Below, in pieces: positions 23,830 to 35,422 of a stretch of DNA of 64,000 nucleotides; the first letter of the stretch is position 1; every line of letters starts with the position of its first letter. A program made the position numbers and the translations under genes. Source of the DNA: Candidatus Latescibacterota bacterium (GTDB lineage Bacteria > Latescibacterota > UBA2968); assembly GCA_965207885.1 (NCBI GenBank), contig OZ242311.1:4640001-4704000 (forward strand), written 5' to 3'. A model generated the notes under the pieces. It was not told the DNA's origin. It did not search any database and saw nothing but the letters and a program-made list of their open reading frames with translations.

Positions 23830-24117
23830 TTACACGCCTTCGGCGATTATCACGGAGGCGGTGGCGGACCTCAGGCGGATCTCTTTGAGTCTGGCGTATT
23901 CCGGGGAATTTAGCCACGTCCTCGCCTGTTCAACGCTGTCGAATTCTACCACTACCATGCGGTCGGGTATCCAATCGCCCTCTATCGCCTCAGTGACACC
24001 GCCTCGCACCAGGTATTTGCCGCCGTGAGCCTCAACGGTCGCTGCAATCCCTTTTTGAAACTCAGCGAAGACAGCCTGGTCCGTTATTCCGTTATTCAAA
24101 ATTACATATCCAGCCAT
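23830..24117 (-). CDS. DUF1330-domain protein
   Basis: HGGKYLVRGG...EG-W...VVVEFDS-E-A--W--SPEY signature. Confidence 0.88.
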   Translation of the reverse strand: MAGYVILNNGITDQAVFAEFQKGIAATVEAHGGKYLVRGGVTEAIEGDWIPDRMVVVEFDSVEQARTWLNSPEYARLKEIRLRSATASVIIAEGV

Positions 24118-24207: not shown

Positions 24208-25263
24208 TTATGGATATTTGGTGTCGCTCGTATCCTCAATGGGTCCGTCTCTGGTTTGCAATCGCATCCCGGTGTTATTGGCGCGCGTGCTCCAGACTTG
24301 CCCCGAGATGGCAGCGTGCTTCCGTAAGGCTGTTAGCAACTGCGCCTTGACTACATCATCTGAGGTCTCATCGGCGTCAAAGAATCCGAAGACTGTGGAT
24401 CCAGTTGACGAAAGGCCACACCCAACAATGCCGGCCACCTCGTTAAACCCGCGCCGAACCGCCTGAAGCGGGGCGAGTTCTGGTCGCTCCCAATGTCGCC
24501 GCTTCCAGCCAGTCTCCTGCAGGGCACTCACTGATGATCCAAACGCCGGCAGGTCGAACTCCAGGATCGCGGACAGGAGTTGCATCAGGATCACATGCGA
24601 CACCGCTTGAACCTCATTCAGTGGTATCGGTGTGTTAGCGACCATGAATTCAAGTTCTCGCTGGCCCGATAGCCCGCCCAAATCCCGAGGTCTGAACAGG
24701 ACCACGCCCCAGTGAACTGGAAATTCGTAGCGAAGTAAGAGAGGCGGTTGACGCACATCGCGGGCAAAGCGGCTGGGCGCAAAGAAGTCCTTATCCCGGT
24801 CAACGGAGTGGCCGCCATCCAGTAGCAGACCGCCCCATTGGAATGCACCAATGCCGATGCCCGACGTACCCCCTCGCGTCGATATTTCTGTCAGTTTGGA
24901 CTGTGACAGGTTCAGTTCGAAGCAGTGATTCAGTGCCGCCAGCAAGGACAGCCTCCACTGGGTACCCGAACCAAGCCCATGATGGGGAGGGATCGTCTCG
25001 CGGATAACGACCTGCAAGGCTGGATCAACATCCAGCAACTCGCTGCTGGATATGAGTTCTCTCATCACGAACTTTCGTAGCCTGGCGTCGCCACCACGCA
25101 CGTTGGCGTGCCCGTGGGAGCAGAAGTCGAACACGATTCCCGGTTGTTCCAGCGCAACGCCGAGACCGCCGTCGATGCGACCCAGTTGACCGTTCATGTC
25201 AACGAGCGTGAAATGCAAACGCGACGGGGTGCGAATGCGATTGTGAGTGAAGGTTGAGGACAT
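24208..25263 (-). CDS. Beta-ribofuranosylaminobenzene 5'-phosphate (beta-RFAP) synthase family, GHMP kinase fold
   Basis: TPSRLHFTLVDMNG..GRIDGGLGVAL, PPHHGLGSGTQ, RGGTSGIGI..F..GG..LDGGH, GLSSTG; start uncertain (ORF extends to 25368). Confidence 0.85.
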   Translation of the reverse strand: MSSTFTHNRIRTPSRLHFTLVDMNGQLGRIDGGLGVALEQPGIVFDFCSHGHANVRGGDARLRKFVMRELISSSELLDVDPALQVVIRETIPPHHGLGSGTQWRLSLLAALNHCFELNLSQSKLTEISTRGGTSGIGIGAFQWGGLLLDGGHSVDRDKDFFAPSRFARDVRQPPLLLRYEFPVHWGVVLFRPRDLGGLSGQRELEFMVANTPIPLNEVQAVSHVILMQLLSAILEFDLPAFGSSVSALQETGWKRRHWERPELAPLQAVRRGFNEVAGIVGCGLSSTGSTVFGFFDADETSDDVVKAQLLTALRKHAAISGQVWSTRANNTGMRLQTRDGPIEDTSDTKYP

Positions 25264-25370
25264 CGGCAGCCTCTGTGGAAATGGTCGAGCAACGGGTGCT
25301 GGATACGAAGCTGTGGTAACGCAGAAGTTATTCGACGATGATAGATTTGATTTTGTGTGTTCTGTCAATA

Positions 25371-27131
25371 CTATCGCGAGCCATCGACTTGTACTGTAAT
25401 AATGTCTATGCCGTGATATTTCCGGTGGCGCACAGAAGACGCGTAATGCCGCAACAGGCGGAACGATATCTCGCTTTCTTCCGGAACTTCGACCTGTTCG
25501 CTCAGGTACGCCAGTTGGTCTTCGATGTTCTCCTCCTCGAAGACCGCCAGGAACTCTATCTCTATTGTCCCGTTGTTGGGACGCGCAAAGAGGATCAACT
25601 TCGGCGCATTATCAGCCGTGTAGTTACCCCCCAGCTGTAACAGACTCGACAGTGCCTCCTCACCGGCGGCACGCAGCCGCTCCGTCGAAGCATCATTCCA
25701 GCCGATCCTGGAAGCGAGGTCGCGGAGTAATGCGTCAATCCTGGGCAGAGCGGAGATGTCCAACGCGGTCTCCAGGCGTCTGCGCCTCGGGTTGGTCAGC
25801 TCTGTGAATGAGGTCATCAGAATCGCAGCCAGAACGCCGGCTGTCATGCCGTTGCCGAGTGACGCGCCCCACGTCTGGCCCAGCAGGTCCAGGAAGATGT
25901 TCTGATTCTCCAGGCCCACTCCTATTGAGAGTGCCAGGCCCACCGACAGAGCCTTTCGATGATCGAGACCGTCCTGAAAGACTGTCCTCATACCTTCCAC
26001 GAAGAGCAGCCCCATTATCATCAACAGGAAAGCTCCCATGACGTGACTGGGAATTGTGAGCAGGATAGTCGCCGCCTTGGGCAAGAACGCCAGTCCGAAT
26101 AAGATGCCCCCAATAATATATCCAACGCTGCGTGCTGCGACTCCAGTGAGGGTGATGAGCGACACGCAGGAAGGCGAATAGATTATAGTGGGTAGCGTTC
26201 CCGCAATTCCGGATAGCAGCGCGCCCAGTCCGTTGGTGTTGAGTGTGCCCTGGACCAGGCGGAAATCGGTCGCCTGTGGCCTGCGTCGCGAAATCTGTTG
26301 TATGACAACGCTATCGCCACTGGTCTTGATGGCGACTACGAGACTCACAATCACGAACACCGGCAGAAGTGCCCAGAACTCCGCACCCGGTCTCAGGTCG
26401 AGCCCCGCCCATACTGCGATATCCGGCAGGTCAAACCAGGGTGCTTCGATTATTCGCCGAGCATCGTACAGTCCGAAGTATGCGGCGACCGCGCAACCCG
26501 TTGCGATTCCGATAAGTGGCGACCACAGCCGCCAAATCCCTGAAGCGCGCAGTGCCAGTGCTACGGCGACGATCAGTGTCACTGCAGCACTGACTATACC
26601 CGCGGCCAGAGGCACCCCTTCGGGTACTTCTTTCAGCCCGTCGAATGCGATTGTCATGACTGTGACTGCTATCAGCATGAGCGCTGTGCCTGAGACGACC
26701 GGCGTGATGATGCGCCGCAGCAGCGGGAGCCAGGCGGCCAGCGCGAACTGCATTAGTGACGACACGACGATGAGACTCGCCAGCATGGACAGGTCGCCCT
26801 CCTTTAGCGCCAGGACAGAGATCGCTATGAAGTGAGGTCCGGCACCTGTCATGAGCACCTGCCCAGATCCCAGCCGTCCGACCCGACTAGCCTGTAGCGC
26901 AGTAATAACGCCACCGATTATAAGCGAGGAAAAGATGGCCCACGATAGGTAGTGATCACTCTGGCCGGCCGCACGGAAGATAATGGTTACAAACAACACC
27001 GTGTTGGCCAGAGTAAGCATGACACCCTGAAAGGCGACACCAATCGACACTGAGGGAGGACACCGCTCGTCAGGCTCGTATTGAATGGTTTCATTTTTGT
27101 GCGCTATACTCAAAGATAGCTCCCAATTCAA
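25371..27131 (-). CDS. NCS2 (xanthine/uracil permease family) transporter fused to a C-terminal degenerate HATPase/RsbW-like domain
   Basis: N-terminal Y-x-P-D-E-x-x-P, LQA...G, ITPVVSG, LTGVAAR, AFLPK typical of NCS2; last ~140 aa are soluble and align by eye with the RsbW at 33831-34253. Confidence 0.8.
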   Translation of the reverse strand: MNWELSLSIAHKNETIQYEPDERCPPSVSIGVAFQGVMLTLANTVLFVTIIFRAAGQSDHYLSWAIFSSLIIGGVITALQASRVGRLGSGQVLMTGAGPHFIAISVLALKEGDLSMLASLIVVSSLMQFALAAWLPLLRRIITPVVSGTALMLIAVTVMTIAFDGLKEVPEGVPLAAGIVSAAVTLIVAVALALRASGIWRLWSPLIGIATGCAVAAYFGLYDARRIIEAPWFDLPDIAVWAGLDLRPGAEFWALLPVFVIVSLVVAIKTSGDSVVIQQISRRRPQATDFRLVQGTLNTNGLGALLSGIAGTLPTIIYSPSCVSLITLTGVAARSVGYIIGGILFGLAFLPKAATILLTIPSHVMGAFLLMIMGLLFVEGMRTVFQDGLDHRKALSVGLALSIGVGLENQNIFLDLLGQTWGASLGNGMTAGVLAAILMTSFTELTNPRRRRLETALDISALPRIDALLRDLASRIGWNDASTERLRAAGEEALSSLLQLGGNYTADNAPKLILFARPNNGTIEIEFLAVFEEENIEDQLAYLSEQVEVPEESEISFRLLRHYASSVRHRKYHGIDIITVQVDGSR

Positions 27132-28408
27132 ACTAATTTCGCAGGATCGTTGATGCGCGCGCCTTCGGGGGCAGGGACTGAGCCTGCCAGCAGTGGGTCG
27201 TCGGTTGTTTCCATCCAGGTTTGGAGGCGATGGCGCAGGTCGTCTAACGCGTCCTGATATTTGGGATCAGAGGCGAGATTGTTGGTCTCATATGGGTCAA
27301 AAATGAGGTCGTAGAGTTGTTCCGGGGGCTGGTTTTTCTGCCGCCAGCCCTGGGCGAGAAAGTAGGATTTGCTGGGACTGCCGTCGCAGTTGATGTCACC
27401 GGGACGCAGTGTGGGATACCAGTGGCGGATGTATTTCCATTTTTTTGTGCGTATGGCGCGTTGCGGGTCGTAATAGCTGTGGTAGTTGATTTCTGCAAAA
27501 ATTTCATCGTGGATTTCATCTGTTTCTTCGCGGATGAGTGGCAGTATGGATTTGCCTTGCAGCCAGTCTGGATGGTCTATGCCGATTACATCGCACAAGG
27601 TGGGGAAGAGGTCAGTTTGTGAGACCATTCCATCGATGACTTTGCCGCCTGAAAAACCCGGTCCGCGCATGATGAGCATGACGCCGATGCCGTGATCGGT
27701 GAGGTTGCATTTCATCATGGGAAATGCGATGCCGTGATCTGTGGTGCTTATGACGATGGTGTTGTCTGAGAGCTTGGCACTATCTATGGCGTCGAGGACG
27801 CGCCCGACTTCGGTATCGAGGATGCGAACGCAGGTTTTGTATGCAGCGGTGTCGTATCGAGTTTCGGGGGTGTCGGGTAAGGGCGCAGGGGGTATGCAAT
27901 AGCGCGGGTCGTCTCCGGGACCCGGTTCGGGGAAGCTGCGGTGGGTGACGGTATATCCGACGTCGAGGAAGAAGGGCTTGTCGTGAGACCGGTTGAGAAA
28001 TGCAATGGCCGCGTCGGAGGTCGCGCGTTGATTTTTCGCTGTGTCGAATATTTCGTCATAACCGATTTCCGAGGGATCGGCTGCTGGGGGACGGCCGACG
28101 TGCTGAAAACCCGATAGTGCGGTTGTGTAACCCGCTTTTTTGAGGGTGTGAACGAGGTGATGGCTGTAATCGTTGAGCCGAAATCCGCGGTGGGCAAGTC
28201 CCAGCATGCCACAACTGTGAGGCCATTGTCCAGTCAGGAGTGCGGCTCGGCTCGGCGAGCAGGTTGGGTTGGCGCAAAATGCCTGGCGAAAGAGAACGCC
28301 CTGTTCGGCGAGGCGCTGAAAATTTGGGGTGGGCATGGCATGTCCAAAGGGCTGAATGTAGCGACCCGTGTCGTGAGAGTGGATGTAGAGGATGTTTGGA
28401 TGAGACAT
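27128..28408 (-). CDS. Sulfatase (N-sulfoglucosamine sulfohydrolase-like)
   Basis: PNILYIHSHD, CSPSRAALLTG, TTDHG, LYDL..DP.E..NL. Confidence 0.9.
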   Translation of the reverse strand: MSHPNILYIHSHDTGRYIQPFGHAMPTPNFQRLAEQGVLFRQAFCANPTCSPSRAALLTGQWPHSCGMLGLAHRGFRLNDYSHHLVHTLKKAGYTTALSGFQHVGRPPAADPSEIGYDEIFDTAKNQRATSDAAIAFLNRSHDKPFFLDVGYTVTHRSFPEPGPGDDPRYCIPPAPLPDTPETRYDTAAYKTCVRILDTEVGRVLDAIDSAKLSDNTIVISTTDHGIAFPMMKCNLTDHGIGVMLIMRGPGFSGGKVIDGMVSQTDLFPTLCDVIGIDHPDWLQGKSILPLIREETDEIHDEIFAEINYHSYYDPQRAIRTKKWKYIRHWYPTLRPGDINCDGSPSKSYFLAQGWRQKNQPPEQLYDLIFDPYETNNLASDPKYQDALDDLRHRLQTWMETTDDPLLAGSVPAPEGARINDPAKLV

Positions 28409-28426: not shown

Positions 28427-29842
28427 TTACGTATGCGATAGATACGCTCGGAGGTGTTTGAGGGCGCGGCCATTATCTATTGCTTCTCGCGCCTGTTGAA
28501 TTGCATCTTGGGGATCGGCGGTGAAACCGAGCAGATAATCTGTGAGGGCTGCATTGAGTACAATGCGGTCGTAAACAGGCCCTTTTTCGCCAGAGAGGGC
28601 TGCAAGACCGAGTTCGGCAAAGGTCTGCGCATCGACGGTGTTGGGACGTGGATTTTGTGTGTAGTGAAAGCCGTAAGTGGTGGGATTGATGTCGCAAGCA
28701 TAAGTTTGATCGACGCGAAAGCCCTGTGAAAAATTGATGGCGTTGCGCGTTTTATCGGTGGGTTTTCCCAGGCGAAGGGAAAAGTGGCTGGTGCCTTCTT
28801 CTCCCTTGATTGCGACTGCAGATGTAAATCCGGTCTCGCGTGCGATTTTCAGAAGGGGGATTTCGTATCCCGAATGGTAATAACCGATGACGATGTGATT
28901 GCTTCCAGAACAGGTGAAGATTTGCTGCGCTTTTTCTGTGGCAGACCACGGGGGGCGTTTGCCAATGTGGGCGCGAAGGTCGCGGGCTGCATAGGCCGCT
29001 GGCGCATATTCGCGCTGGCTGATGTAGGCAAAGCCAATCTCGGGATTTTCGAGTCGTTCTGCTGCTTCTGAAAGCGACAGATTGGTGCGGGCATTGAGGG
29101 CGTTGAGGATCTGTTCGTCGGTTACACCCCATTTGGGCGGCATGGCATCTACACCGTGAAGCACGGTGGGGCGACCGAGGGCTGCGCGCAGTGCTGCGAC
29201 AAAAAGGGTGGGTTTGAAGTAGCGGGTTGAGCCATTGTAGGGTTGACCAAAGTGGGTGAGGTTATTCACCTTTACTGTGTGGGCGCATTCGGGCGCAAAG
29301 GTCGAGTGGAGGTATCCGCGCACCTCGTCGTAGGATTCGAGGTTCATGCGTTGGCCTATCAGTGCGGCACCTTTGAAGCTGGCGCGAATGCTTTCGGTGA
29401 GAATGGCTTCGCACATAAGGCGCGTTTGGTCGTAGGTGAGATGACCACCGGCGAGAATGGTTTTTAGAGAGGCAATGATGGTTTGCTCGTCGGGTGATTC
29501 TGCGGGACAGTGATCTTTAAGGCCGAAGATATATTGCAGATCCGGTGAGAGGTGGGTTTGTAGATGGGGGGTATATTGTTCAAAGGCGTTGATTTCTGCC
29601 TGGCTCCAGGTTGTTTTGGGCGGGTAACTGCGCCGCAGACGCATGGCGGCAAAGAAGGATCCCATCTGGATATCGGAGACCGGATGATGCGCTTTGTTTT
29701 GCAGGGTATTGATGATGGCATCCAGTACGGGCTGCGGCTGTGGATCGCTGGATTTGTTGCCCAAAGGACGAGATTGCGTGGGGCCTGTACACACACGCGC
29801 CTGGGCTTCGAGGACGAGGGGATTGGGATCAAATAGTGGCAT
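28427..29842 (-). CDS. Anthranilate phosphoribosyltransferase-like protein (TrpD2/YbiB-like)
   Basis: PYNGSTR, VLHGVDAMPPKWGVT, R..IGKRPP.AT.EK, KGEEG; TrpD-like C-terminus. Confidence 0.7.
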   Translation of the reverse strand: MPLFDPNPLVLEAQARVCTGPTQSRPLGNKSSDPQPQPVLDAIINTLQNKAHHPVSDIQMGSFFAAMRLRRSYPPKTTWSQAEINAFEQYTPHLQTHLSPDLQYIFGLKDHCPAESPDEQTIIASLKTILAGGHLTYDQTRLMCEAILTESIRASFKGAALIGQRMNLESYDEVRGYLHSTFAPECAHTVKVNNLTHFGQPYNGSTRYFKPTLFVAALRAALGRPTVLHGVDAMPPKWGVTDEQILNALNARTNLSLSEAAERLENPEIGFAYISQREYAPAAYAARDLRAHIGKRPPWSATEKAQQIFTCSGSNHIVIGYYHSGYEIPLLKIARETGFTSAVAIKGEEGTSHFSLRLGKPTDKTRNAINFSQGFRVDQTYACDINPTTYGFHYTQNPRPNTVDAQTFAELGLAALSGEKGPVYDRIVLNAALTDYLLGFTADPQDAIQQAREAIDNGRALKHLRAYLSHT

Positions 29843-30012
29843 AGGATGAAAAGTATTGTGAGGCTACAGTGTTGTCAAGCGATTGAAAAGGATAAAGTCA
29901 CAGAGGGTGTAAAAGTGCTATACATCACCCCAATTTGTTTGTATTATGTTTCCCATTAGTCGCGTTTGGTGTTTTACGAGAGAGTATAAATCAAAAGCTG
30001 AGGAATTTTCCA

Positions 30013-31563
30013 ATGTTTTTCAGGTGTTCTCGTTTCGCTTTTCTGATGGGCCTGTTTCTGGCCCGTGATGCATTTGCACAGGAAGCTTTGGCTGGCGAGT
30101 CGTCTGGCGCGATACAGATGGTTATTGACGTATTGAATGCAGGCTTGGGTGCGATAACCAATTTTCTATCTTCGATTATATTTTTTGATTTTGGCCTGGG
30201 TATTCCACTCGTTATTATTGTGCTCGTAGGTGGTGGCCTTTATTACTCTTTTTATTGTCGCTGGATCTCTCTGCGCGGAATGAAACATTCGATTGATGTG
30301 ATTCGCGGAGGGTATGATAATCCGGATCATCCCGGTGAGATTTCGCATTTTAAAGCTCTGACCAGTGCGTTGTCTGCCACTGTGGGGCAGGGGAATATCG
30401 CGGGTGTAGCGATTGCTGTGAGTGCCGGTGGTCCCGGTGCTGTTTTCTGGATGATTGTCACGGCTTTTTTTGGTATGGCGTCCAAGTTTGTATCCTGTAC
30501 TCTGGCGGTGATGTACAGAAGAATCCATCCCGATGGGCGCGTGTCGGGTGGGCCAATGTACTATCTGGAACAGGGCTTAAAAGAAAAAGGCCTTGGGATT
30601 TTGGGGCGCGTGATGGCTGTGTTTTTTGCCGTGTTGACAGTTGGCGGTTCTCTGGGCATTGGCAATATGTTTCAGGTGAATCAGACAGTTGAAATGCTCG
30701 GTACTGTATTCGAGGGATTTAAGACCTATAACTGGGTTGTCGGGATTTTAATGGCGGGGGTAGTGGGCATTGTCATTAGTGGAGGTATCAAGCGCATTGG
30801 CACTGTCACAGCGAGCATTGTACCCTTCATGTGTGGTTTGTACGTGCTCACATCCTTTCTCATTATTCTCGCGCGTATTACCGAATTGCCCAATCTGATT
30901 GTGAATATCATTTCCCAGGCGTTTATACCTGAAGCCATATATGGTGGCTTCATGGGATCCCTGGTTCAAGGGGTACGCAGGGCGGCTTTTTCCAACGAAG
31001 CGGGGTTGGGTTCTGCGGCATTTGCCCACGCGGCAGCCAAAACTGATGAACCCGTGCGTCAGGGGATAGTGGCGATGATTGGACCATTTATTGACACCGT
31101 TATTATATGTTTAATGACGGCATTGGTTTGTATGATTACGGGTGCGTATCAGTTGCCCGAATTTCAAGGGCAAAGTGGGTATCTCGTGGGAATCCAGATG
31201 ACATCTGTGGCATTTGATTCGTTTGCGCCCGGGTCGCGTTATGTCATCGCAATTGTGGCAATGTTCTTTGCATATACGACGGTGATCGCGTGGGCATATT
31301 ACGGCGAGCGAGCGTGGGAATATCTTTTTGGATTGCGATCTACTCTGACGTATCGAATTGTTTTTGTGTGCTTTGTATTTATCGGGTCTGTCACCGCGCT
31401 AAAGAGTGTGGTCGATTTTTCCGACGCGATGATTTTTGCAATGGCGTTTCCGAATATTGTCGGCTGTATTATCATGAGTCCACAGATCAAAGACAGGCTC
31501 AACGAATACTGGGGGCGTTACAAGGCGGGTGAGATAAAGGCGTATCCGAGGAACGTATATTGA
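30013..31563 (+). CDS. Alanine/glycine:cation symporter (AGCS family)
   Basis: GNIAGVAIA, GGPGAVFWM, GGPMYY, FSNEAGLGS, PFIDT. Confidence 0.93.
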   Translation: MFFRCSRFAFLMGLFLARDAFAQEALAGESSGAIQMVIDVLNAGLGAITNFLSSIIFFDFGLGIPLVIIVLVGGGLYYSFYCRWISLRGMKHSIDVIRGGYDNPDHPGEISHFKALTSALSATVGQGNIAGVAIAVSAGGPGAVFWMIVTAFFGMASKFVSCTLAVMYRRIHPDGRVSGGPMYYLEQGLKEKGLGILGRVMAVFFAVLTVGGSLGIGNMFQVNQTVEMLGTVFEGFKTYNWVVGILMAGVVGIVISGGIKRIGTVTASIVPFMCGLYVLTSFLIILARITELPNLIVNIISQAFIPEAIYGGFMGSLVQGVRRAAFSNEAGLGSAAFAHAAAKTDEPVRQGIVAMIGPFIDTVIICLMTALVCMITGAYQLPEFQGQSGYLVGIQMTSVAFDSFAPGSRYVIAIVAMFFAYTTVIAWAYYGERAWEYLFGLRSTLTYRIVFVCFVFIGSVTALKSVVDFSDAMIFAMAFPNIVGCIIMSPQIKDRLNEYWGRYKAGEIKAYPRNVY

Positions 31564-31570
31564 TAACTTT

Positions 31571-31604
31571 AAGACGGGTTGACCATCACAGGTGAACCCG
31601 TCTT
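31571..31604 (+). terminator. Hairpin/terminator after AGCS gene
   Basis: AAGACGGGTT...AACCCGTCTT inverted repeat. Confidence 0.6.
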
Positions 31605-31687
31605 GTGTGTACTAAAAAGGTGAAAGACGAGATAATATGTTACTTTACAACTTGTCGTGTACTATGAAATAAGAGTTAAAAAAAGAT

Positions 31688-31716
31688 TTGACTTTCGCAT
31701 AGACAAGTAATATTTT
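31688..31716 (+). promoter_or_regulatory. Putative sigma70 promoter of the partner-switching cluster
   Basis: TTGACT-17 nt-TATTTT. Confidence 0.45.
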
Positions 31717-31859
31717 AGCTGAGCTTCTCAATTCCCTGCAAGAATACATCTCGCTATGGGGCGCAATGGCTCTTGACCGAATTGAGTGCATTTGTTTTTT
31801 GCACGCGACGTGCGACAAGAGCTTCCGTAGATAATTTTCACACATCAGGATACAGGTCC

Positions 31860-32198
31860 ATGGAGATTAAAACCCAAAAAGAAAATGGCATTTTAATCGC
31901 GAACGTGAATGGCCGGGTTGATAGTGCCAATGCCCGCGAGTTCGAAAATGTATTAAGCTCTGCAATCAGTGACGACGATACATGCGTGGTCGTAGATTTT
32001 GGGGGGCTTTCTTACATTAGTAGCTCGGGCCTGCGGGTCATTTTGCTGGTTGCCAAGTCACTCCGGAATCGCAATGCGGAATTCGCGCTTTGCTCGCTTT
32101 CTGGTCCCATCGGAGAGGTCTTCAAAATCAGCGGATTTGACAAGATCATTTCGATCTACGACTCACAGGCAGAGGCTTGCGCTGCACTGGGCGGATAA
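31860..32198 (+). CDS. STAS-domain anti-sigma factor antagonist (RsbV/SpoIIAA-like)
   Basis: GRVDSANA, YISSSGLR (phosphorylated Ser motif), VFKISGF; start MEIKTQ at 31860. Confidence 0.9.
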   Translation: MEIKTQKENGILIANVNGRVDSANAREFENVLSSAISDDDTCVVVDFGGLSYISSSGLRVILLVAKSLRNRNAEFALCSLSGPIGEVFKISGFDKIISIYDSQAEACAALGG

Positions 32199-32664
32199 CC
32201 TGCTGTCGCGTGTGCTCTCAAGCCATAGATGAGAGTTTGGCGTGTTTTATTTAACATTATTACACGGACCGGACCCGCCATGCTTACTGTGTGCTTCCCT
32301 CAATCGGGTTACAGGCGTTCTCGAACTCATACGCCGATCCGATTTCCTGTGTATCTAGTCTATAGATCACTTTCCAGGGTATTTCTCATGCCCTGTATAT
32401 CCGCTTTCAAAACCTCCCGAATAACAGCCAACCTTCTGCAATTCAGTAACCGGTGTCGTGCAGTTTGTCATTACACAATGACCGACCTGGCATTTGTCCA
32501 TGTATTGTATTCTCCCCGTAGGTCCTCTCCCTTACAACGTAGCAGAGTAAGTAACAGGGACAGGCCCATGAAGCGAGGACTTTTGCTATCGCAATGATTG
32601 TGTTCCGATCAAAGAGTGCTTAACATCAGTATAAGTAAGACACCATTAATTAAGAGGCGCGTAT

Positions 32665-33834
32665 ATGAAAAAGGCGCAATACAAAATACTCGTGGTTGAT
32701 GATGAACCCGATCTCGAACATCTCGTGCGGCAGCGCATGCGGCGCGATGTTCGCGCCGGACTCTACGAATTCGTCTTTGCTTACAACGGCGTTGAGGCTC
32801 TCGAGGTGCTGAACGCGGATCCGGATATCGATATGGTGCTTTCGGACATTAATATGCCGCGGATGGATGGTCTCACGTTGCTCGAACAGATGTCGGAAGT
32901 TGATCCCGACCTCCGCGCTGTCATTGTCTCGGCTTATGGCGATATGAAAAACATCCGTACGGCCATGAATCGAGGGGCGTTTGACTTTGTTACCAAGCCC
33001 ATTGATTTTCAGGATTTGAGGGTCACAATTGAGCGCACTCTGGAACACCTGAAGCTTTGGCGCGAGGCTGTGGCTTCGCGGGATAAGCTGGTGGCACTGC
33101 AAAACGAGCTTCGCGTTGCCCATGATATGCAGCAGTCTATTCTGCCGAAGACCTTTCCCGACAAACCTGGCTACCAGCTATTTGGAAGCATGGAGCCTGC
33201 ACGCCAGGTGGGAGGTGACTTTTTTGATATTATCAATCTGGAAAACGACCGCATCGGCCTGGCAATTGCCGATGTCTCCGACAAGGGCGTACCGGCTGCT
33301 CTATTCATGATGTCCAGTCGCACGTTGATGAAAGGGGCTGCAATTGGCAAATCGAACCCGACCGATGTGCTGACCGAGGTCAATCATCTCCTGCAGGAAG
33401 ACAACGACGCAGCGATGTTTGTCACCGTGTTTTATGCCGAATACAATCCGGTGGATGGGTCGCTATCGTACGCCAATGGGGGGCACAATCCCCCGGTCAT
33501 CGTCCACGCAGATGGCAGCTCGACTGTGCTCCCCCAGACCAACGGAATTGCTCTGGGTATTTTGCCAGACATCGAATACGAACAAAACTCAGTCACTCTA
33601 TCGCCCGGCGATACCCTCGTGCTCTACACAGATGGCATTACCGAAGCCATGAATGCCCAGAATGAGGAGTTTGAGATGGAGCGTTTGCTTACAGTATTGT
33701 CCGGGGCGAGTTCGCAGGATGTCCGCGAAATGAATCAGGCGATCTTTCAAGCTGTGCAGGCATTTGCAGGTGATATGCCCCAGTTCGACGATATGACCTG
33801 TATGACACTTTTTTGCAGAGAGATAGGGACATGA
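32665..33834 (+). CDS. Receiver domain + PP2C/SpoIIE phosphatase (RsbU/RsbY-like)
   Basis: ILVVDDE, SDINMPRMDG, KPID; VGGDFFD, IADVSDKGVPAA, LYTDGITEA, DDMT. Confidence 0.93.
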   Translation: MKKAQYKILVVDDEPDLEHLVRQRMRRDVRAGLYEFVFAYNGVEALEVLNADPDIDMVLSDINMPRMDGLTLLEQMSEVDPDLRAVIVSAYGDMKNIRTAMNRGAFDFVTKPIDFQDLRVTIERTLEHLKLWREAVASRDKLVALQNELRVAHDMQQSILPKTFPDKPGYQLFGSMEPARQVGGDFFDIINLENDRIGLAIADVSDKGVPAALFMMSSRTLMKGAAIGKSNPTDVLTEVNHLLQEDNDAAMFVTVFYAEYNPVDGSLSYANGGHNPPVIVHADGSSTVLPQTNGIALGILPDIEYEQNSVTLSPGDTLVLYTDGITEAMNAQNEEFEMERLLTVLSGASSQDVREMNQAIFQAVQAFAGDMPQFDDMTCMTLFCREIGT

Positions 33835-34253
33835 AGGTGAAACGTTCTCTATGTATTGCGTCGGATCTCAGCGAGTTGGAGCGGCTTCACGATGCCGTGG
33901 CAGAACTCAGCGAGGCGGGAGATTGGCCCCCCGATCTCGTGTACCAGGTTGATCTCGTTCTCGAGGAATTGATCGTCAATACTGTGAACTACGGGTACGA
34001 CGACGATGCACGCCACGAGATTGAGGTCACGCTGACCTCGGATGAGGATGTTTTCACCGTTGAGATTATAGACGACGGGCATGCCTTCAATCCACTGAGT
34101 GACGCTCCCGAACCAGACCTGGACGCAGGGATAGAAGATCGGCCGATAGGGGGGCTTGGCATCCATCTGATGCGCGTTATGATGGACGATGTACACTATC
34201 GCCGCGAGGAGAATAAGAATCATCTTACTCTGGTTAAGCGGAGGAATGGATGA
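33831..34253 (+). CDS. Anti-sigma factor / serine kinase (RsbW-like, HATPase_c_2)
   Basis: EELIVN (N box), IDDG..FNP (G1), GGLGIHL (G2); ATGA overlap with upstream gene. Confidence 0.9.
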   Translation: MKVKRSLCIASDLSELERLHDAVAELSEAGDWPPDLVYQVDLVLEELIVNTVNYGYDDDARHEIEVTLTSDEDVFTVEIIDDGHAFNPLSDAPEPDLDAGIEDRPIGGLGIHLMRVMMDDVHYRREENKNHLTLVKRRNG

Positions 34254-35422
34254 GGAGAACGCGCTACAGTTGTGCAGTTTTGCTACTCGTCTTGCTGATT
34301 GTGGAAATCCGCGCAGAAGAATCTGGAATCTCTGATGAGCGCATCCTTTTTGGGCAGTCCGCCGCCTTTAGCGGTCCCGCTCAAGAACTGGGCAAGAACA
34401 TGCGGATTGGAATTGAGGCAGCTTTTCAGGAGGCTAATGCGCGGGGCGGCGTGCATGGTCGGCAGCTCATGTTATTGTCTCTCGATGACGCATACGAACC
34501 CGAAGCTGCTATCGCCAATACCCGTCGCCTGATTGAACAGGAAGGGGTTTTCGCGCTGATTGGTGCTGTCGGCACGCCTACATCGCTCTCTGCCACCCCT
34601 GTGGCCGCAGCCGCTGACGTCCCCTACATCGCCCCCTTTACCGGTGCTGCCTTCCTGCGTGAAGCCAGGTGGCAAAACGTGATTAACCTGCGGGCGTCTT
34701 ATAACCAGGAGACCGAGGCTATGGTCGCTCGCTTGACCACAGACCTGGGTATTAAACGCATTGCCGTTATGTACCAGGATGACTCTTTTGGTCGGGCGGG
34801 TTATCGCGGCGTGCGGCAGGCACTTGAGCGGCGTAGCATGGAACCTGTGGCAATAGGGGTGTACCCGCGCAATACCACGGCGGTGAAGACGGGTCTGCTC
34901 AACCTGCATAGTGCAAACCCCGATGCAGTCATCCTGATAGGGGCCTACCAGCCGGTAGCAACGCTGATTGCCTGGGCGCGACACATAGGGCTGGATCCCG
35001 TATTCATGACCATCTCCTTTGTGGGCAGCAATGCGTTGGCCGGGGAACTCGGTCGCAGTGGTGCTGGGGTCTTTGTCACGCAGGTCGTACCTTTTCCAAC
35101 AGATAACACTCTACCCGTTGGTATTGCCTATCGCCGTGCCCTAACGGCCCACGCCCCCGAAGCGACTCCCGGCTTTGTCTCCTACGAAGGCTATTTGGCG
35201 GGGCGATTGGCTATCGCCGCTCTCGAACGCTGTGGGGGAGAGGTTAACCGCACCCGGTTTCTCAACAGTTTGCGCGGTGCGGATGCTATTGATCTGGACG
35301 GCTTTGAACTTCGCTATGACGCAAATGACAATCAGGGTTCAGACGCTGTTTTTCTCACCGTGATTGGCACAGATGGCAGTTATCGCTCGATCCAAACTCT
35401 GCGGGACGCAATAAAGCCATGA
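34250..35422 (+). CDS. Periplasmic binding protein type 1 (LivJ-like) sensor/SBP
   Basis: Signal peptide, GQSAAFSGP, GGVHGRQL..LDDAYEP, VGTPT, RASY..E. Confidence 0.85.
   Translation: MRRTRYSCAVLLLVLLIVEIRAEESGISDERILFGQSAAFSGPAQELGKNMRIGIEAAFQEANARGGVHGRQLMLLSLDDAYEPEAAIANTRRLIEQEGVFALIGAVGTPTSLSATPVAAAADVPYIAPFTGAAFLREARWQNVINLRASYNQETEAMVARLTTDLGIKRIAVMYQDDSFGRAGYRGVRQALERRSMEPVAIGVYPRNTTAVKTGLLNLHSANPDAVILIGAYQPVATLIAWARHIGLDPVFMTISFVGSNALAGELGRSGAGVFVTQVVPFPTDNTLPVGIAYRRALTAHAPEATPGFVSYEGYLAGRLAIAALERCGGEVNRTRFLNSLRGADAIDLDGFELRYDANDNQGSDAVFLTVIGTDGSYRSIQTLRDAIKP

Follow-up and report, generated by a model that had tools for sequence, protein, structure and literature searches.

The open reading frame (ORF) at 25371-27131 on the reverse strand of the window, which is the whole 64,000-nucleotide stretch of contig OZ242311.1 from a Candidatus Latescibacterota bacterium, encodes a divergent secondary transporter of the NCS2/NAT (UraA-fold) superfamily whose C-terminal end is an RsbW/SpoIIAB-type GHKL-fold domain devoid of the ATP-binding motifs. 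The transporter fold and the domain fold are known; new are their combination in one protein, the size of the family and its distribution among habitats. The initial annotation had presented the architecture as undescribed, and this view holds, as neither Pfam nor NCBIfam has a model for it and no description of a permease fused to an RsbW-like domain was found in the literature searched (full text, supplementary files aside). In particular, the available portion of the NAT/NCS2-hound paper (PMC6308229) mentions no extra domain, and the portion of PMC11596202 available reports more xanP genes in marine Gemmatimonadetes. In the source annotations these proteins appear as 'hypothetical protein', 'purine/pyrimidine permease' or 'uracil-xanthine permease family protein'. 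The gene is divided as follows.

25371..27131, reverse strand: whole ORF, NCS2-type permease with an RsbW-like putative pseudokinase domain (ORF call, database relatives)
25794..27056, reverse strand: transmembrane core, residues 26-446, UraA/UapA-type 7+7 fold (Pfam, AlphaFold2 secondary structure, Foldseek, hidden Markov model (HMM) alignment to UraA)
25782..25793, reverse strand: linker N-P-R-R, residues 447-450, from the last transmembrane helix to strand 1 (DSSP of the full-length model)
25374..25781, reverse strand: RsbW/SpoIIAB-like GHKL-fold domain, residues 451-586, without N-box Asn, G1 and G2 (sequence, profile and fold comparisons)

The kinship of the C-terminal domain with RsbW was established at the level of profiles and folds. 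The last ~140 residues had initially been aligned by eye with the RsbW encoded elsewhere in the window (33813-34253), from which a Bergerat/GHKL fold with lost ATP-binding residues had been proposed; the by-eye register was reproduced by BLASTP (E 0.22, 132 columns) and again by hhalign, in which a family alignment made of the window domain and 29 short family fragments (n=30) matched a profile of 26 homologues of the window's own RsbW at E 7.5e-5, with a probability of 62% over 122 colinear columns. Taken alone, the last ~137-140 residues match no Pfam or NCBIfam model, PF13581 (HATPase_c_2) giving no match at E<=10, and weak PF13581 matches occur in 6 of 30 family C-terminal domains (best E 2.2e-4). 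Since a profile search of PDB sequences with the C-terminal domain alignment returned only spurious weak matches (GAL4 at E 0.0059, GspD), it takes profile-profile and fold comparison to reveal the kinship. Modelled alone and without templates, the domain reaches a predicted local distance difference test score (pLDDT) of 85.8 and a predicted template modelling score (pTM) of 0.79 in AlphaFold2, with the element order strand-helix-helix-strand-strand-(low-confidence lid)-helix-strand-strand. In a Foldseek search of the PDB, UsfX, RsbW and SpoIIAB account for all of the top 12 matches of this model (E 1e-7 to 2e-6), and VIA-align superposes it on Bacillus subtilis RsbW (6m37_C) at Z 17.0 with a root-mean-square deviation of 1.8 Å over 114/115 residues. 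UsfX, SpoIIAB and the RsbW domain of Rv1364c follow at Z 13.5-16.4 and SiaB at 11.8, whereas generic histidine-kinase ATP domains reach only 7-8. Feature neighbours in the ESM Atlas are hypothetical proteins of ~135-140 residues, 17 of 30 of them in clusters carrying PF13581. Thus, on the hhalign, Foldseek, VIA-align and ESM Atlas results, the modelled domain is specifically of the RsbW/SpoIIAB type, beyond being merely GHKL-like.

The loss of the ATP site extends to the whole family. When 274 distinct family sequences were read at the motif positions given by the hhalign register, the N-box Asn position was found to hold S in 180, T in 36 and C in 14 rows and Asn in a single one, and the G1 Asp position to hold A in 205 and Asp in none. 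The G1 Gly position holds F in 133 rows and Gly in 7, and the two G2 glycine positions, occupied by E (215) or D (33) and by S (254), never hold Gly; bulky F, I or L residues are found at G1 and G2 positions across the family. In parallel, the N-box Glu (E492) is retained in 254 of 255 non-gap rows and the helix-1/helix-2 Trp in 238. As read from this alignment, the loss of the ATP site is old and family-wide, and because the N-box Asn, G1 and G2 motifs are absent the domain is predicted to be a pseudokinase, incapable of canonical ATP binding. Selection nevertheless appears to constrain the domain strongly: in a 38-sequence alignment, pairwise identity averages 44% in the C-terminal domain, 42% in the transmembrane core and 59% over the last 30 residues, and E492 and E491 rank 1 and 4 in conservation among its 136 positions. 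It also carries a conserved RLRAAGEE helix and a near-invariant C-terminal SFRLLRHYASSVRHRKYHGID motif. Compared with RsbW, SpoIIAB and UsfX, the domain shares the fold, the element order, the conserved Trp and the N-box Glu and aligns in the same register; those are, however, free proteins of 140 residues, whereas here the fold is the C-terminal domain of a membrane transporter, and without the N-box Asn, G1 and G2 it is expected to show no canonical ATP binding or kinase activity.

The permease part is recognized by Pfam as Xan_ur_permease (PF00860, residues 32-407, E 1.4e-37, 129.8 bits against a cut-off of 27), and the NCBIfam models pbuX (TIGR03173, 177.9 bits) and ncs2 superfamily (TIGR00801, 144.2 bits) stay below their cut-offs of 414.15 and 291.8, respectively. 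A template-free AlphaFold2 model of the full-length protein, built from the 38-sequence alignment (pLDDT 83.3, pTM 0.78), has a 14-helix UraA-type core with short strands in transmembrane helices (TM) 3 and 10. With this model Foldseek retrieves the structures of SVCT1, UapA and UraA at E 4e-15 to 1e-14, with TM-scores against NCS2 structures of up to 0.85 (normalised to the target), followed by SLC26Dg, SLC26A6, SLC26A11 and prestin at E 7e-9 to 1e-6. The modelled core thus resembles NCS2 structures (E about 1e-14) more closely than those of SLC26 (E about 1e-8), and a Pfam scan found no Sulfate_transp or STAS match in the protein. According to DSSP, the last transmembrane helix (TM14) spans residues 428-446 and the cytoplasmic strand 1 residues 451-456. 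Two minor features concern the N-terminal end. A cytoplasmic motif Y-E-P-D-x-x-C-P-P with a conserved Cys precedes TM1 (residues about 17-26, window about 27054-27083) and is modelled at pLDDT 79-93, residue 18 forming a beta-bridge. Two start codons come into question, the TTG at 27131, which gives the longest ORF (586 residues) and overlaps the stop of the sulfatase gene, and the TTG at 27113, the start of near-identical database proteins of 580 residues.

The core shares with UraA, UapA, XanQ and SVCT1 the 14-TM, 7+7 inverted-repeat fold and the short strands in TM3 and TM10. To our knowledge, NCS2/NAT proteins are the textbook minimal elevator transporters, without a cytoplasmic domain. 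Solved UraA chains, of 429-437 residues, align to the transmembrane part only, whereas 137 extra folded residues are present here, and no solved NCS2 chain matches the C-terminal domain. The NAT signature of TM10, [Q/E/P]-N-x-G-x4-T-[R/K/G], is altered, as had been pointed out initially: in the HMM alignment to UraA the permease reads P320-S321-C322-V-S324-L-I-T-L-T329-G330, with E290, N291 and G293 of UraA corresponding to P320, S321 and S324 and C322 being an extra residue. In TM8, E241 and H245 of UraA correspond to K269 and D273. UraA residues E241, H245, E290 and N291 presumably bind substrate and proton, and since these binding-site residues are altered the transported substrate is unlikely to be uracil or xanthine. 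The 'xanthine/uracil permease' annotations in symbiont genomes are probably wrong on substrate.

The fusion belongs to a large family. A phmmer search with the C-terminal piece found 549 clusters at E<=1e-3 among 1.84 billion representative proteins (clusters being representatives at 50% identity), and in the phmmer matches listed the domain lies at the C-terminal end of full-length proteins of about 540-600 residues. A word-seeded search scored on residues 440-586 gave 1911 proteins at E<=1e-3, and the precomputed annotation of the 120 relatives listed from these holds PF00860 only. The domain ends at most 25 residues from the C-terminus in all of the 166 family proteins of at least 500 residues that were examined, a geometry by which the fusion appears obligate. 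Of 599 pattern matches in one-genome-per-species contigs, at least 557 were confirmed as relatives. The best 80 of these at least 557, at 55-96% identity to the window protein, come from metagenome-assembled genomes (MAGs) labelled Latescibacterota, Gemmatimonadetes, Chloroflexota/Dehalococcoidia, Alphaproteobacteria, Acidimicrobiia, Vicinamibacterales, Rhodothermales and Immundisolibacterales; the closest record among them is a Latescibacterota MAG (L011) with 96% identity and full synteny. Several of the names, among them Candidatus Spongiisocius and Candidatus Poriferisodalis, suggest an association with sponges, and 31-mers of the gene were found in runs that carry the label sponge metagenome and come from five or more studies. 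To judge from these records, the family spans eight or more phyla, largely in sponge-associated MAGs.

Within the window's phylum the C-terminal domain is patchily distributed, being present in 73 of 168 genomes, which belong to only 10 of the 49 genera, with 1-5 copies per genome. The window's genome has four copies, among which two intact paralogues are 52% and 43% identical to the window protein and the fourth, at genome position about 672-675 kb, is split by a gene for a 374-residue DDE transposase (PF01609, E 4.6e-16) standing between parts that match residues 9-164 and 199-585. Because the window subfamily is 55-81% identical across MAGs of at least eight phyla and only 43-52% identical to the paralogues of its own genome, gene transfer among sponge-associated bacteria is suggested. 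The sharing of the family by sponge-associated bacteria of at least eight phyla points in turn to a shared host-related nutrient niche. Two further observations concern copy number and integrity: two to three permease copies stand inside one 20-kb locus in 9 of the 80 loci, and in one orthologue group of a single genus (nine genomes of the phylum, frames of about 585 residues) a single in-frame stop, TAG, TAA or TGA, falls within the C-terminal domain match, so that these could be split or truncated domains, or pseudogenes.

In B. subtilis RsbW, according to PMC7340262, strand 1 and helix 1 form the homodimer interface and helices 1-3 bind RsbV, with E49 touching the phosphorylatable Ser56 of RsbV and D42, K44, S48 and Y118 making further contacts. 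Chaining the PDB alignment with the hhalign register, that is, two alignments at about 15-20% identity, places D42 at R485, K44 at R487, S48 at E491, E49 at E492 and Y118 at R558 of the permease, with conservation ranks of 18, 56, 4, 1 and 37 of 136, in this order; the chance that all five contact positions fall within the top 56 is about 0.01, as computed after the residues had been inspected.

We favour, with a probability of about 0.5, an explanation in which the C-terminal domain acts as a cytoplasmic module for dimerisation and regulation, constitutive and independent of ATP, which would match in position and function the STAS domain of SLC26/SulP transporters. Both NCS2 and SLC26 transporters form dimers by way of the gate domain, and SLC26 transporters are regulated through their C-terminal STAS domain. 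The four-residue linker would hold the C-terminal domain tightly under the gate domain, and, as in the RsbW dimer, strand 1 and helix 1 would pair, here below both gate domains of the dimeric transporter. The former substrate-docking face, which would be kept in the form of R485, E491, E492, N535, S556, R558 and the RHYASSVRH-KYH motif, could then bind a regulator or the transporter's own cytoplasmic face, by which transport would be tuned. The likeness to SLC26/SulP lies in a related 7+7 fold, in a cytoplasmic domain placed directly after the last transmembrane helix and in the origin of both domains from the partner-switch toolkit; the difference is that SLC26/SulP carry STAS, the antagonist half, and the present family carries the RsbW-like kinase/anti-sigma half. 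A generic role is indicated by the paralogues, in the same genome and in other phyla, which keep the domain amid differing catabolic contexts (PLP (pyridoxal phosphate) enzyme/UxuA/aminotransferase; extradiol dioxygenase; SDR; MR/MLE).

Three points weigh against this explanation. The equivalents of the RsbW dimer elements are only moderately conserved, L457, F468 and A473 ranking 22-24 and R464 ranking 129 of 136; the conserved Glu residues of the former catalytic face point to partner docking over mere dimerisation; and the docking-face map, with its two chained low-identity alignments and its post hoc probability, is suggestive only. Were a regulatory module of this kind to operate, it would offer a new model for the cytoplasmic-domain control of elevator transporters. 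The putative pseudokinase domain, conserved in a large NCS2 clade and corresponding to the half of the STAS/RsbW pair that SLC26 transporters do not carry, would be a natural case of a GHKL fold re-used without ATP, in an unannotated multi-copy family.

The first alternative, which we consider unlikely, is that the putative pseudokinase domain docks unphosphorylated STAS, so that a partner switch gates the permease or the permease, as a transceptor, sequesters the STAS protein. The initial annotation had proposed a docking pseudokinase of this sort, coupled to the module that lies further along the window.

31860..34253, forward strand: partner-switch module (Pfam: STAS 31860-32198, response-regulator-PP2C 32665-33834, RsbW 33813-34253)

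Of that proposal, the RsbW fold and the loss of the ATP motifs were confirmed, and in favour of docking all ten structural matches at Z 13.5-17.0 are RsbW-type anti-sigma factors binding a STAS antagonist or a sigma factor. UsfX, a homologue of RsbW, has been described as devoid of kinase activity yet able to bind STAS antagonists. The RsbW residue in contact with RsbV Ser56, E49 (PMC7340262), corresponds to the most conserved residue of the family, E492, and neighbouring RsbV contact positions map to E491, R485 and R558. Single-domain STAS proteins are present in the window's genome and in 10 of 10 other genomes checked; because every genome checked holds them, a STAS partner could act in trans. 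Indeed, the window's genome has six STAS matches in open frames of 115-159 residues and three HATPase_c_2 matches at E<=1e-15.

The link to the neighbouring module, however, was not borne out. The module is self-complete by Pfam, and it stands ~4.7 kb from the permease on the opposite strand with three unrelated genes between. Conserved co-location was sought in the best 80 related loci, up to 10 kb on each side, by tblastn (E<=1e-5) with the window's neighbour proteins and by de novo clustering of all ORFs of at least 80 residues. By tblastn, homologues of STAS are present in 4 loci, of RsbW in 4 and of the response-regulator-PP2C protein in 5; the four positive for STAS and RsbW are the syntenic L011 and three Vicinamibacterales loci, in which the module lies 6-8 kb off in a different gene order. 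In the remaining 76 of 80 loci no STAS or RsbW homologue occurs within 10 kb, and in this the permease differs from RsbW, SpoIIAB and UsfX, not being encoded with a STAS or sigma-factor gene. None of the 24 annotated neighbour clusters, each found in at least 7 loci, is a partner-switch gene, and no STAS, RsbW or PP2C gene stands beside the three same-genome paralogues. In five Dehalococcoidia genomes the strongest-class single-domain STAS lies ~1.6 kb from its own RsbW and far from the permease, and in three of the five the only single-domain STAS adjoins its own RsbW. In addition, the helix-1 position aligned with R24 of the window RsbW is variable (rank 129 of 136).

A bolder form of the docking idea, slightly more doubtful still, is that the domain is a working, kinase-dead partner-switch receiver with E491/E492 as the docking site for STAS, either as unphosphorylated proteins or as part of SulP transporters, the permease being a transceptor. 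If true, nutrient transport and partner-switch signalling would be directly coupled, and the 7+7 elevator superfamily would have captured both halves of the partner switch independently, STAS in SLC26/SulP and RsbW in an NCS2 clade. In the region 29935-35422 on the forward strand, the window's module stands alone, is without an adjacent sigma-factor gene and is flanked by Na+/alanine symporter and Peripla_BP_6 genes. Frames of ~570 residues with weak PF13581 matches in Dehalococcoidia, considered as possible paralogues, were set aside, the one examined being an ordinary histidine kinase.

A second alternative takes as partner of the C-terminal domain the product of the gene for a small DUF1330 protein, acting as a docking regulator in the manner of GlnK on AmtB or SbtB on SbtA, and is to be regarded as improbable.

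23830..24117, reverse strand: DUF1330 gene, 95 residues (Pfam PF07045, E 2.6e-28)

Small regulators encoded beside their transporters have known precedents in the transporter/regulator pairs AmtB-GlnK and SbtA-SbtB, and the likeness consists of a gene for a ~95-110-residue protein conserved beside the transporter gene. DUF1330 is the only widely shared neighbour, being found by ORF clustering in 51 of the 80 loci (50 by tblastn) and in several phyla, at a median of 65 bp downstream and on the same strand in 47 of 51; it is the sole match of its kind in the window's genome and is 44-73% identical over the 23 paired loci aligned. DUF1330 is, however, not a PII protein, and the pairing is limited to one permease subfamily: adjacency falls with permease identity from 26 of 29 loci at >=70% to 19 of 29 at 60-70% and 5 of 22 at 50-60%, and the gene is absent beside the three same-genome paralogues, although low-identity subfamilies and paralogues all keep the C-terminal domain. 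Since every subfamily keeps the RsbW-like domain, this distribution makes a metabolic role of DUF1330, acting on what one subfamily imports, more likely than that of a general partner of the domain. A complex prediction for the domain with DUF1330 gave ipSAE values of 0.00 and 0.00, obtained without control runs and of no weight either way as to binding, and the nearest solved relatives of DUF1330 are the uncharacterised proteins 2fiu and 3lo3. ORF clusters of 95 and 92 residues near the Vicinamibacterales copies were rejected as DUF1330 (hhalign probability <1%, no Pfam match) and are probably shadow ORFs.

Of comparably low probability is the re-use of the degenerate pocket as a small-molecule sensor, through which a metabolite, such as the imported substrate or its product, would feed back allosterically on transport. 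Conserved polar residues surround the former nucleotide site and lid (E491, E492, N535, E537, D538, S556, H562, H569 and Y572), the lid segment is variable with low pLDDT, and the domain occurs in permeases of diverse catabolic operons, all of which would suit a sensor; yet the bulky hydrophobics in place of the G1/G2 glycines probably fill the pocket, and the substrates apparently differ among subfamilies although the motif is identical in all. It is highly improbable that the domain is a membrane-tethered anti-sigma factor releasing its sigma factor on substrate transport, for although RsbW, SpoIIAB and UsfX bind sigma factors with the same fold, no sigma-factor gene is found among the annotated neighbour clusters, and 1-5 copies per genome in varied catabolic contexts are unlike a dedicated sigma regulator.

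The remaining genes around the permease bear mostly on its substrate.

24208..25368, reverse strand: beta-RFAP synthase family gene, GHMP-kinase fold (TIGR00144, 239.6 bits, cut-off 113.5)
27128..28408, reverse strand: sulfatase gene, its stop overlapping the permease start (Pfam PF00884, E 5.3e-33)
28427-29842, reverse strand: TrpD-like phosphoribosyltransferase gene

The beta-RFAP-synthase-like gene, which scores 266.7 bits against NF040726 (below the cut-off of 328), stands in the window between the DUF1330 gene and the permease, and because it starts 2 bp past the permease stop the two genes are suggested to share one operon. The apparent operon comprises the permease, the beta-RFAP-synthase-family gene, the sulfatase and the TrpD-like gene. 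As conserved partners, the sulfatase, TrpD-like, beta-RFAP synthase and AGCS genes were rejected, having homologues in 3, 1, 6 and 1 of the 80 loci, respectively. The six loci in which a beta-RFAP-like gene accompanies the permease/DUF1330 pair belong to three phyla, and this recurrence hints that the substrate may be an aromatic amine or aromatic acid. The beta-RFAP synthase and TrpD families both use phosphoribosyl pyrophosphate (PRPP).

The further genes that recur beside the permease serve catabolism or transport (SDR, MR/MLE, PBP_6, ABC, SSF and DctM), and the neighbours of the paralogues in the window's genome encode a PLP enzyme, a UxuA-like dehydratase, a DegT aminotransferase and an HpcH aldolase, or an extradiol-dioxygenase-type protein; ORF clustering over the 80 loci found no neighbour common to all of them. 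Finally, two sponge metatranscriptome runs contain contigs 90-99% alike over pieces of the DUF1330, beta-RFAP-synthase-like, permease and sulfatase genes, which is a weak hint of expression, as DNA carry-over is possible and the contigs give no expression level.

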